IMG/VR virus record: IMGVR_UViG_3300046787_000327
Location: 1-64,000 of that record
Source: a virus
Strand: one strand, 5' to 3'
Length of the DNA: 64,000 bases
Under the pieces are notes generated by a model that saw nothing but the letters and a program-made list of their open reading frames with translations, was not told the origin of the DNA and searched no databases. Shown piece after piece: positions 1 through 3,881 of this stretch (positions within the stretch are counted from its first letter, which is position 1; each line of letters begins with the position of its first letter). The position numbers and the translations under genes were made by a program.

Positions 1-64
1 GGGGGTGGGGTAGGGGGTAGCATGACCAGTCATAGGCTGGGGTACCTATGACCAGTCAAACCTA

Positions 65-262
65 CTACTCTGACTTTACTGCGATAGTACGATAGGTAGT
101 GCGGATAGAGCGAGGGTCTTTAACCTCAACTAGATAAGCCTCTGCACCTTCATAGTAGATAGGCTGAGGGTGCTTTTCTGCACTGATAATTTCACCTGTA
201 AGGGTGCGGGACTGATAAGTCTTACCTACTAGTAGGGACTCAATTGAATATAGATTAGCCAT
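65..262 (-). CDS. Small hypothetical early protein (65 aa)
   Basis: Start moved to ATG 262 (MANLYSIE), which follows AGAAAGAAGG RBS and a promoter at 294-316. Confidence 0.75.
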   Translation of the reverse strand: MANLYSIESLLVGKTYQSRTLTGEIISAEKHPQPIYYEGAEAYLVEVKDPRSIRTTYRTIAVKSE

Positions 263-1764: not shown

Positions 1765-2021
1765 TATGCAACACCTACCAATTCTAGAAACATCTCAGTG
1801 CCACCCTCATTGATAAAGGCAACTTGCTTTTCGATTGAAGCCCATGACATATCTTCAAGGTCAGGCATGCACTCATCAATTGCACCCTTGTTCATTTCGA
1901 TGAAGCCTTCACCCATCATCATGATTTGTGGGAGGTAGCGATTTGTCTCCGCAACCTTTGAAACGAAATTGTAGCCCTTGTAAGTAAAGGGGAAGCGAGC
2001 AAACTTAATTGTTGAAGTCAT
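1764..2021 (-). CDS. Hypothetical protein (85 aa)
   Basis: ATG 2021 overlapping the upstream stop. Confidence 0.75.
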   Translation of the reverse strand: MTSTIKFARFPFTYKGYNFVSKVAETNRYLPQIMMMGEGFIEMNKGAIDECMPDLEDMSWASIEKQVAFINEGGTEMFLELVGVA

Positions 2022-2206
2022 TAGAGAACAGCCTTTCCACGAAGTGTACCTGAAATTGAGAGAGCGTCGCAAGACACTTTGAGAGCAACACCTACTGGCA
2101 GGCTATCTGCATAAGTAGAGATGAATTGAGCAACTGCACCCTTTGAAGGGAGAGCGATTGACTTTGTTGAACCGTTGAACGATTCGAGTTTTACAGTGTA
2201 GTTCAT
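2021..2206 (-). CDS. Hypothetical protein (61 aa)
   Basis: ATG 2206 after AAGAAAGGTGG RBS. Confidence 0.75.
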   Translation of the reverse strand: MNYTVKLESFNGSTKSIALPSKGAVAQFISTYADSLPVGVALKVSCDALSISGTLRGKAVL

Positions 2207-2241
2207 GAGAACCACCTTTCTTTTGTTAAGTTGATAAGACT

Positions 2242-2263
2242 ATCCTATCAGACTAGACCGACA
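2242..2263 (-). promoter_or_regulatory. PafBC-type promoter (TGTCGG-N10-TAGGAT)
   Basis: Exact consensus and spacing, extended TG. Confidence 0.7.
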
Positions 2264-2268
2264 AATTG

Positions 2269-2329
2269 GGCACTTATTCGCTTAGGCTCACTGTGATACT
2301 AGTCACATTTATTTGCTAAGGCTCATGCC
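2269..2329 (-). ncRNA. Structured leader RNA B with two UGAGC/CRAAUAA internal loops
   Basis: Stems GGCA/UGCC, CUUAG/CUAAG, UGUGA/UCACA; same loops as RNA A at 3559-3631. Confidence 0.7.
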
Positions 2330-2360
2330 TTTATTTATCTTTATTTAATTGTATAAGAGA

Positions 2361-2389
2361 ATACTACCAGAGAAATGTCAAAAAGTCAA
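2361..2389 (-). promoter_or_regulatory. Strong sigma-A-type promoter TTGACT-N17-TG-TAGTAT
   Basis: Same -35 and -10 hexamers as the promoters at 3398 and 3499. Confidence 0.8.
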
Positions 2390-2420
2390 GTTTAGACACG
2401 GACAATTCGGACATTATTTA

Positions 2421-2450
2421 TGTGTTTCGCATCACACGAACATCTGTTCG
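2421..2450. promoter_or_regulatory. CRP-like box (2421-2436) abutting a LexA SOS box CGAAC-ATCT-GTTCG (2437-2450)
   Basis: Perfect Gram-positive/actinobacterial LexA consensus. Confidence 0.7.
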
Positions 2451-2480
2451 AAAACGGGACGTCGCATTTTTGCAAGTTTT

Positions 2481-2576
2481 TTACTTGTCAAAAATTTTTA
2501 GCAACTCTTCACATTGTTCATCAGTTAGATGTGTTATGTCAATTGCTTTTTGAAATAGATCCGTGATTTCATTCAT
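2481..2576 (-). CDS. Small hypothetical peptide (31 aa)
   Basis: Hand-translated; GGAG RBS; TAATG overlap. Confidence 0.55.
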   Translation of the reverse strand: MNEITDLFQKAIDITHLTDEQCEELLKIFDK

Positions 2577-2731
2577 TAGTTTTTCTCCATTGTTTCAATA
2601 ATTTGTTTCAATTGGTTTTCGGTAAGTAGTGCAAACGCTGCACCCCACATTCCTGCATATCGGAATTGACCATATTTGTTTTCTGCAAGGTTAAGAATTT
2701 CATCTTGCATTTTTACTTTATCTTTATACAT
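2576..2731 (-). CDS. Small hypothetical protein (51 aa)
   Basis: Hand-translated; TAATG overlaps. Confidence 0.65.
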   Translation of the reverse strand: MYKDKVKMQDEILNLAENKYGQFRYAGMWGAAFALLTENQLKQIIETMEKN

Positions 2732-2907
2732 TAGTTATTCACTTTCCAATCTGACCACATAGATAAACGGTCTGAATCAAAATCCATCCAATAGGATTCG
2801 ATATTCTGCTCGCATGATTCGCAGAATGTGTATGCTACATCATTATAGAATGAGATAGCCTTTTTATTAGGGGTATGCTCAACGCATACGGTTGTTAGTG
2901 TAGTCAT
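2731..2907 (-). CDS. Small hypothetical protein (58 aa, CxxH...CxxC)
   Basis: Hand-translated; GAAAGGTGG RBS. Confidence 0.7.
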   Translation of the reverse strand: MTTLTTVCVEHTPNKKAISFYNDVAYTFCESCEQNIESYWMDFDSDRLSMWSDWKVNN

Positions 2908-3170
2908 TATTTACGACCACCTTTCTTAGTAGTACGGCAATACTTAGCGTATTTGATAAAGAGTTTTCTGTAACCACATGAATCACAGTAGCGATTTAAG
3001 TAAGGTTGTTTTACATTAGTAGCATGGGTATCTGTCCATGCTGTGTGCTTACATGTAGGGTCATTACCCGCTACATTGTAGTCATTGTAGTAGTAGGGAA
3101 CATGGCTCCATGAATTGTAGCCAGTAGGGATAACGCTATTAAGAGCGTTTATTGCGTTAGTGTTAGTCAT
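2907..3170 (-). CDS. Hypothetical protein with CxH/CxxC (87 aa)
   Basis: ORF track; GAAAGG RBS; promoter TGGACA-N17-TAGTAT at 3228-3256. Confidence 0.7.
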   Translation of the reverse strand: MTNTNAINALNSVIPTGYNSWSHVPYYYNDYNVAGNDPTCKHTAWTDTHATNVKQPYLNRYCDSCGYRKLFIKYAKYCRTTKKGGRK

Positions 3171-3326
3171 TTTGACCTAACCTTTCATTTTTCGTTAATA
3201 ACCTTTATTAACTTTCTTTATATGATAATACTAGCAGATAAAACCCATACTGTCCAGTATACCCATGAGTAGTCTCAATATATGGAGCGTGGGTATTGTG
3301 ATATAGACCACACACATAGGGGGTAG

Positions 3327-3347
3327 TTATCCACATAGTTATCCACA
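3327..3347 (+). promoter_or_regulatory. Two perfect tandem DnaA boxes (TTATCCACA)
   Basis: 3327-3335 and 3339-3347, at the divergence point of early transcription. Confidence 0.7.
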
Positions 3348-3397
3348 GGGCACGTCCCCATGTGGTACACATCACACCCGACACGCCGTGTATGGGC

Positions 3398-3426
3398 TTG
3401 ACTTTTGAGGGTATATATGTTAGTAT
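3398..3426 (+). promoter_or_regulatory. Strong promoter TTGACT-N17-TAGTAT
   Basis: Consensus spacing with extended TG; CRP-like box at 3361-3376. Confidence 0.8.
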
Positions 3427-3498
3427 TCTACTATAACAATTAAATAGAGCAATAAGGAATACCCCCTAAAATGTGATACGAAACACACCCCTAAATGC

Positions 3499-3527
3499 TT
3501 GACTTTTAGAGATATGTATGCTAGTAT
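3499..3527 (+). promoter_or_regulatory. Strong promoter TTGACT-N17-TAGTAT (tandem copy)
   Basis: Consensus spacing; CRP-like box at 3472-3487. Confidence 0.8.
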
Positions 3528-3558
3528 TATTACTATAAGAATTAAATAGCAAGGAAAT

Positions 3559-3631
3559 CCTAGTGAGCCTCTGAGCCTACCAAATAAGGTCGAAAGACAT
3601 GAGCGTAGCAAATAAGAGCAAATAACCTAGG
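3559..3631 (+). ncRNA. Structured leader RNA A with three UGAGC/CAAAUAA internal loops and a GAAA tetraloop
   Basis: Nested stems CCUAG/CUAGG, CUC/GAG, CUAC/GUAG, GUC-GAAA-GAC; non-coding and directly downstream of a promoter. Confidence 0.75.
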
Positions 3632-3683
3632 CAAGGAAAACAGTTAGCAAATTGCTAATAGTATTAAATGAAAGGAAGTTAAA

Positions 3684-3881
3684 ATGACTTCACTATATAA
3701 CCATATCGAGATTGGTGATACCATCTCATTCCCTACATCTATGAACCTTGTTAAGTCAGGTGTAGTAGAGTCACTACGAAAGTGGAATGGCACTGCTATG
3801 CAGGTGCGTTGCACTAATGGTGCTAAGTTTGAGATTAGTCGTTATGTAAATGACTATGTACTAACAGTAGAGGAGAACTAA
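3684..3881 (+). CDS. Small hypothetical protein (possibly SH3/KOW-like)
   Basis: GAAAGGAAG RBS. Confidence 0.75.
   Translation: MTSLYNHIEIGDTISFPTSMNLVKSGVVESLRKWNGTAMQVRCTNGAKFEISRYVNDYVLTVEEN

Follow-up and report, generated by a model that had tools for sequence, protein, structure and literature searches.

A conserved RNA built from a repeated internal loop on early transcripts of uncultivated phages, probably actinophages

Introduction

Is the sequence that recurs at the head of two divergent early operons of an uncultivated phage a structured RNA, and if so, what is likely to read it? The question is raised by a short region of IMG/VR record IMGVR_UViG_3300046787_000327, of which positions 1 to 64,000 are the window analysed here (the whole stretch of 64,000 nucleotides); the genome has 112,951 bp. 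A preliminary description of this DNA, made from its letters, had reported two divergent leader RNAs assembled from copies of one internal loop. We know of no RNA-level control of early transcription that has been described for phages of actinobacteria, including the abundant freshwater lineages. We show here that the observation of the two loop-repeat leader RNAs is real, that both RNAs belong to a conserved, strand-specific, structured RNA family and that this family is absent from Rfam 15. It is carried on the early transcripts of an uncultivated lineage of ~100-kb phages, which are probably actinophages.

Results

RNA A (plus strand, 3559..3631) is a three-loop rod for which sequence and fold give four nested helices and three asymmetric internal loops of UGAGC opposite CAAAUAA; two of the loops are co-oriented, the apical one is inverted and a GAAA tetraloop caps the rod. 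RNA B, on the minus strand, has a two-loop core (2269-2329) with three nested helices, again from sequence and fold, and the last 3' strand of its loops reads CGAAUAA. The inversion of the apical copy in both RNAs, which had been pointed out before, is plain in the sequence, and the letters and coordinates first given for RNA A (+3559-3631) and RNA B (-2329-2269) match it exactly. The extent of RNA B had been given as that core, which stands, but the full element is longer: an outer 7-bp helix, P0, pairs 2333-2339 with 2260-2266, so that the element spans 2260..2339, and the 80-nt form has a z-score of -2.93. Minimum free energy folds (ViennaRNA) of RNA A and RNA B return the same nested helices, bearing out the fold that had been proposed, while the antisense strand does not form the rod on folding. 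Throughout the 112,951-bp genome, UGAGC and CAAAUAA-type strands cluster at the RNA A and RNA B loci only, and a covariance model scores RNA B with 74.8 bits and RNA A with 58.4 bits, the next match in this genome reaching 15 bits.

Energy calculations contribute little. The fold z-scores were -0.3, -1.7, -0.7, -0.5 and 0.05, those of RNA A and three relatives being -0.3, -0.7, -0.5 and 0.05, and RNAalifold returned no consensus structure from a MAFFT alignment of 81 sequences. This program penalises short helices and large loops, and the stems were partly out of register in the alignment; hence, register-aware pair counts were used instead. Thermodynamics alone gives the fold no support. Since, in addition, the helices are short (3-6 bp) and the loops large, we interpret this as a sign that non-canonical pairs close the loops or that a partner holds them.

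The evidence for the fold comes from comparison. IMG/VR was scanned with three patterns, specifying a partial core, the 3' strands only or the 5' strands only. The first scan matched at least 119 contigs, about 85 of which have the full core, the remainder being chance matches that have no complementarity. Pooled, the scans yielded at least 155 distinct two-loop cores in at least 128 contigs. Among the matches listed, the central helix is exactly complementary in 154 of 155 cores, although it occurs as eight pair types: CTAG (100 copies), CTAC/GTAG (19), CTAAG/CTTAG (14), CTTAG/CTAAG (13) and four rarer ones. Thus, the claim that the helices differ and still pair extends well beyond the two RNAs for which it was made. 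The first 86 distinct copies among the matches listed have 37 different outer stem and 23 different apical stem sequences, with 41 G-U pairs in these stems; on the opposite strand the same positions would be A-C mismatches, and the G-U pairs thus identify the promoter-sense strand as the one that folds. The MAFFT alignment gives a covariation score of 0.275, as compared with 0.090 after shuffling (none of 500 shuffles reaches the real value), and the score collapses when pairing partners are slid by one to three columns; on a model-fitted alignment it is 0.426 versus 0.133. Covariation as reverse complements, together with the G-U pairs in the helices, shows that the element is a structured RNA and not a DNA repeat, and the built-in covariation that the preliminary description read from two copies is a property of the family.

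Loop conservation can be measured free of circularity by specifying one loop strand and reading the other. Anchoring on the 3' strand, UGAGC lies opposite in 98 of 103 outer and 99 of 103 inner loops among the matches listed. Anchoring on the 5' strand, C-R-A-R-U-A-A lies opposite in 103/124 and 104/124 of the matches listed, and those that have another sequence there are an unrelated repeat. One strand thus predicts the other in about 95% and 83% of the anchored matches listed, in agreement with the near invariance that had been claimed for the loop. With tolerated variants, the consensus 3' strand is C-R-A-N-U-A-A.

The family is consequently built from one unit, an asymmetric internal loop in which 5'-UGAGC-3' faces 5'-C-R-A-N-U-A-A-3'; on the side distal to the central helix, two purines (A/G or G/A) are usually juxtaposed next to the loop. 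Two such loops, inverted relative to each other around a helix of 4-5 bp, form the core, which is closed by a variable hairpin and stands on an outer stem. Each half of the core is the same strand (5' loop, helix, 3' loop), and the two identical strands make a two-fold pseudo-symmetric duplex. Among the matches listed, 16 of 154 copies have, as RNA A does, a third loop outside the core, and one copy has a single loop together with a heptaloop that resembles the 3' strand. The modularity speaks for a reader that recognises every loop as a separate unit, and the symmetry of the core speaks for a dimer.

Read antiparallel, the loop could hold a U-A pair, G/A, A/U, a bulged N and G/A. In the sarcin-ricin motif, a 5x4 loop, a bulged G forms a triple with a U-A pair, flanked by sheared pairs (PMC8450098). 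Compared by sequence, A-N-U-A opposite G-A-G could give the sheared A-G pair, the trans Watson-Crick/Hoogsteen U-A pair and the bulge of a sarcin-ricin or loop E S-turn. Unlike there, the bulge is mostly A (also G or U) and not a conserved G, and the loop is 7x5, or 6x4 if the U-A pair closes. Other known motifs were considered and rejected. A kink-turn consists of a three-nucleotide bulge followed by tandem sheared G-A and A-G pairs; in the L7Ae-type, position 1b must be G and is here an invariant U, and the phage encodes no L7Ae homologue. The UAA/GAN motif would need a pairing for the N of GAN that is absent, and reading the loop as a GNRA receptor fails on the type-B copies, which do not have a GNRA loop.

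Searches for a described relative were negative. Rfam 15 gave no match at the gathering threshold over the whole window, and at E<=10 the interval 2150-3750 gave two chance-level matches, neither of them on the elements; the preliminary description, which could assign the RNAs to no known family, is thus borne out against this collection. A limited full-text literature search found no description of the element, and both loop strands together retrieved unrelated papers only.

The promoters that had been named for the two RNAs, TTGACT and TAGTAT, are separated by N17; one, with TG before its -10 element, precedes RNA A (plus strand, 3499..3527) and one precedes RNA B (minus strand, 2361..2389). 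The RNAs begin ~31 nt past the -10 element and ~24 nt past the likely start site. A third such promoter lies further upstream on the plus strand (3398..3426), and its transcript runs through the next promoter into RNA A. In this exact form TTGACT-N17-TAGTAT occurs at these three places only in the 112,951-bp genome, and the same A/U-rich initial transcribed stretch follows all three; before RNA A this stretch (3533..3558, plus strand) is C-poor, and it is conserved after both promoter classes in the relatives. A lone sequence resembling a 3' strand, GAGCAAUAAGG, follows the first promoter (3447..3457, plus strand) and is probably a decayed element, because relatives show a tandem promoter-element-promoter-element layout. 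Direct repeats of GCAAGGAAA do flank RNA A (3549-3557 and 3631-3639), as had been reported, but they are not a conserved feature: the 5' copy is not retained in the relatives, and the repeats are thus probably incidental. Between RNA A and the ribosome-binding site lies a second, A/U-rich hairpin (3643..3659, plus strand), the stem of which covaries in relatives and which has no U-tract on its 3' side.

A recognisable promoter precedes 136 of the 154 copies listed, its -10 element ending 16-47 nt (mode 34-40) before the first UGAGC; the other 18 copies mostly have a variant -35 element or are the second rod of a tandem pair. Among these 136 copies, 79 follow class 1 promoters (TTGACT) and 57 follow class 2 promoters (TGTCRG-N8-11-TAnnnT). 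The hexamer YATAAN is found 5-6 nt past the -10 element in 97 of the 136 copies listed; a sigma-dependent pause was considered and rejected, as the hexamer does not have the final T of a -10 element. The element is almost always within the first 30-200 nt of the transcript, and at least three of those 18 copies (L174, L179, L189) have a small first ORF upstream. Which gene lies downstream varies with element type and genome, and the distance from element to start codon varies from 12 to over 200 nt, being 12-50 nt in some copies. It is thus to the transcript start that the element keeps a constant relation, rather than to any gene or ribosome-binding site. A single copy, at the head of one operon, is present in each of five related genomes (88-108 kb; at least 90% complete in four cases), while the present genome has two copies that head its two divergent early operons.

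The rightward early operon begins with a gene for 65 amino acids (3684..3881, plus strand) that matches no known family, and the leftward operon with a gene for 61 amino acids (2021..2206, minus strand) that follows type-B elements in at least 34 contigs. Pfam and PHROGs searches with ten small early proteins matched no family. The 61-aa protein is confidently modelled (pLDDT 82) as beta-beta-alpha-beta-beta; Foldseek gave nothing at E<=0.001, the best VIA Z of 5.7 lying under the level that the tool regards as meaningful, and in the Atlas the protein falls into unnamed viral clusters only. None of this is informative about the element.

The region also contains likely DNA signals. Directly after RNA B, a promoter of the second type, TGTCGG-N10-TAGGAT (2242..2263, minus strand), overlaps the 3' strand of P0 with its upstream hexamer. 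The apical hairpin of RNA B coincides with a CRP/GlxR-like palindrome, TGTGA-N6-TCACA (2292..2307), which is conserved in all type-B copies; its arms never covary there, while the six central bases drift, and the same palindrome is found upstream of class 1 promoters in these phages. Since the palindrome does not covary and a class 2 promoter follows RNA B immediately, we regard it as a putative DNA operator placed in the sequence-tolerant tip of RNA B, ~28 bp upstream of the promoter that it probably serves.

Capsid and portal of the phage share 40-47% identity with their counterparts in Streptomyces phages of the family Stanwilliamsviridae (the portal 47% to cultured Streptomyces relatives), the genome has a WhiB gene, and the class 2 promoter resembles what we take to be the actinobacterial RecA-NDp/PafBC motif. 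These features make an actinobacterial host likely. The G+C content of 40% and lake-MAG contigs that carry the motif suggest freshwater actinobacteria. In five genomes of cultured Streptomyces-phage relatives the covariance model found chance-level matches inside structural genes only, and blastn with the region or the element as query gave no relevant match among 50,697 cultured phage records. The exact CTAG-type core occurs in GTDB genomes in four short MAG contigs only, which are probably mis-binned phage; cultured bacterial genomes do not have the element.

Discussion

Watson-Crick pairing is insufficient to hold the rod, stem sequences drift around unchanging loops, and the core has symmetry; this leads us to think that a protein from host or phage docks on each loop pair, most likely as a homodimer. 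The position near the transcript start, behind two types of promoter and at both divergent early operons of this genome, would fit a complex that forms on the nascent RNA and alters transcription elongation. The outcome could be processive antitermination or Rho resistance in the style of lambda nut or HK022 put, which is a guess. Two promoter types have the element close behind them at the head of the transcript, there is one copy per early operon, and both divergent operons are equipped. For these reasons we tentatively favour a leader akin to nut or put, which would alter early elongation once bound by a protein (probably a dimer); to this reading by analogy we give the best prospects while rating it below an even chance.

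The analogy has clear limits. HK022 putL and putR, like lambda nutL and nutR, are structured sites at two divergent early operons (PMC9378689). The put sites resemble the present element in being cis-acting structured RNAs of ~70 nt just downstream of each divergent early promoter, with copies that differ in stem sequence and keep the fold (PMC9378689). They have no sequence likeness to it, and a put site consists of two stem-loops, whereas fold and covariation give one nested rod here. Moreover, put binds the zinc-binding domain of the RNA polymerase beta' subunit with no need for protein factors in E. coli, while our element is known from sequence and its host is likely an actinobacterium. 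Put overcomes terminators that precede early genes, and a search for intrinsic-type terminators detected none here: terminator-like hairpins are no commoner than in shuffled sequence, and none lies on the plus strand between RNA A and 8 kb. Lambda nut combines boxA and boxB, bound by N and Nus factors (PMC2724277). Similar to nut, the early transcripts studied here have a conserved single-stranded stretch followed by structured RNA, located in the leader or after the first small gene, as nutR is located after cro. In contrast, a boxA consensus was not seen by eye in the transcribed leader, boxB is a simple pentaloop hairpin, and a search among the phage proteins gave no credible early candidate for a small arginine-rich, N-like protein, though the phage may have a divergent factor. 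A single interrupted rod that resembles neither the two stem-loops of put nor boxB counts against antitermination, as do the copies that lie a short 12-50 nt from the start codon, which leave room for a role in translation or stability. Another comparable system is the RAT hairpin, which is bound by dimers of the LicT/SacY/BglG proteins. It likewise has two quasi-symmetric asymmetric internal loops in a 5' leader, which a homodimer reads, as may happen here; but the sequence is different, RAT overlaps a terminator while no terminator overlaps here, and the copy number of the present element is variable.

Nearly as likely as the nut/put-like role, though again somewhat improbable in itself, is a signal for processing or stability, the rod being cut by, or blocking, RNase III, RNase E or RNase J and thereby setting the 5' end and lifetime of the early mRNA. 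Precedents are the sites at which RNase III processes T7 early mRNA and Bs-RNase III that of SP82. They are repeated, conserved, interrupted hairpins of early transcripts in leader and intergenic positions, and the distribution here is T7-like: a copy lies in the leader behind the early promoters, and a small number are intergenic or follow a short first ORF. A dimeric enzyme would suit the two-fold symmetric core, the rod would offer ~25-30 stacked pairs if the loop pairs are non-canonical (RNase III cleaves a quasi-continuous duplex of about two turns, a length with which the rod is compatible only if the loops stack), and a structured obstacle near the 5' end could impede 5'-end-dependent decay. 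The cleavage is putative here, however, and the T7 and SP82 signals have no invariant modular loop repeated within one hairpin; indeed, RNase III and RNase E sites are not known to require an invariant 5+7-nt loop. The phage encodes no RNase III, and 15-25 unpaired nucleotides precede the element, so that it is no 5'-terminal protective hairpin. The RN|CNU preference of mycobacterial RNase E (PMC10641625) is matched by an AG|CNU that is present in all modules, but this match is worth only ~5 bits and is expected by chance at some place in a conserved 20-nt module. Unlikely, in our estimate, is that the loops are a decoy or sponge that ties up an RNA-binding host protein or a defence nuclease in the early phase of infection, with the downstream genes incidental. 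Such a role would explain multivalency (one to three loops per rod, tandem rods in some contigs), the use of the strongest consensus promoters and the presence of some upstream copies that are followed by another promoter and not by a gene. It accords poorly with the single two- or three-loop copy of the five related genomes, which offers few sites for a sponge, with the presence of the element nearly always in cis to a gene and with the fact that, to our knowledge, Actinobacteria do not have Hfq, CsrA or ProQ, the usual targets of sponges.

Slightly less likely still is an operator for a phage post-transcriptional regulator that autoregulates or shuts off early genes through translation or decay, for which T4 RegA and the hairpin-dimer pairs of the RAT/BglG type are precedents. 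The tight linkage of type-B copies to one small gene family (34 distinct sequences) and the fact that some copies finish 12-50 nt before a start codon would fit such an operator, and a dimer on a quasi-symmetric pair of internal loops is the RAT/LicT design; on the other side, the downstream gene changes with element type and genome, the ribosome-binding site lies at a variable distance (12 to over 200 nt), and the linked 61-aa protein shows no RNA-binding fold or family. That the conserved thing is DNA, namely an operator array, a cruciform or an origin, is very improbable. The region is dense with DNA signals, including the CRP-like apical hairpin of RNA B and the promoter hexamer overlapped by the 3' strand of P0, but copies of the helix segments are reverse complements (CTAC with GTAG) and not identical repeats, G-U pairs of the stems would be A-C on the other strand, and the orientation of the element always follows the promoter. 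The boldest view is that UGAGC/CRANUAA is a new RNA-protein recognition module, and that the phage wields it as a weapon on a multivalent early RNA: instead of regulating its own operon in cis, this RNA would capture an enzyme that serves the host in RNA metabolism or defence, such as NusA, actinobacterial RNase E or a defence nuclease, and disable it, or else turn it against another target; we consider this as unlikely as the decoy.

Covariation supports the element very well, it is widespread and its small size makes it amenable to study. Its design is unusual, with one invariant loop as the building block, one to three loops per rod and a symmetric core. If it is an antiterminator, it would be, as far as we know, the first analogue of nut and put described outside the enterobacterial lambdoid phages. 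Should a host enzyme dock on it instead, the element would hint at both a new RNA-protein recognition module and a new route of host takeover. Under either reading the family deserves an Rfam entry.

A minor observation concerns the 3' loop strand. The KH domains of M. tuberculosis NusA bind boxC, in which AUA is critical (PMC2724277). The 3' loop strand contains AAUAA, a likeness in sequence that may serve as a lead.

Promoters of the early region and a degenerate element copy

Upstream of the class-1 promoters (TTGACT-N17-TAGTAT) lies a TGTGA-N6-TCACA-like box and, after it, a CGGCGTGTCG-like block that is conserved. Such boxes are found at window positions 3460-3475 and 2405-2420, and also in the relatives, the IMG/VR contigs that carry the same leader RNA with its UGAGC/CRANUAA internal loops. 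Box, block and promoter together are a modular promoter cassette that is common to the whole phage group. A second promoter type, TGTCRG-N8-11-TAnnnT, has no -35 element and is located on the minus strand, at window positions 2242-2263 and 1308-1329 and at genome positions 103910, 108966, 109648, 110530 and 111603; it resembles the actinobacterial RecA-NDp/PafBC motif. Among the IMG/VR matches listed, a TGTCRG-type promoter precedes 57 of the 136 promoter-associated element copies in the relatives.

All that remains after the first plus strand class-1 promoter is a fragment (window 3447-3457) similar to the 3' strand of a loop module. Because the relatives have a complete element at the matching position, this fragment, as judged from sequence, looks like a decayed copy.

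Other repeated elements

Another element that recurs in the genome consists of a short hairpin with the loop CUGRGCAW, then an A-rich linker, and lastly GCUCA or GCCUA, which can pair with the loop to give an H-type pseudoknot. One copy lies on the minus strand at window position 1447; copies beyond the window lie at genome positions 84866 and 92566 (plus strand) and 107870, 109114, 109711 and 110231 (minus strand). Stem sequences vary from copy to copy, and the pentamer UGAGC is common to this hairpin and the leader RNA. Directly 3' of one copy is what looks, by eye, like a tRNA gene.

The scan anchored on the UGAGC strands also returned, among the matches listed, at least about 20 IMG/VR loci in which UGAGC-CUAG is followed by AAGYGAG in place of the 3' loop strand; these are a repeat family unrelated to the leader RNA.

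Genome ends and genes outside the window

The genome has a direct terminal repeat, roughly 128 bp long and G-rich at its start, at window 1-128 and at genome 112824-112951. The early control region is 2-3.6 kb away from the end at window 1-128. On the plus strand outside the window lies a WhiB-family gene, a hallmark of actinophages, at genome positions 90112-90285 (44 bits, exceeding the Pfam cut-off). The plus strand gene at 74944-75228, outside the window and not in the early region, encodes a protein of 94 aa that is rich in cysteine, zinc-ribbon-like, and has a strongly basic R/K patch; it is a possible nucleic-acid binder.
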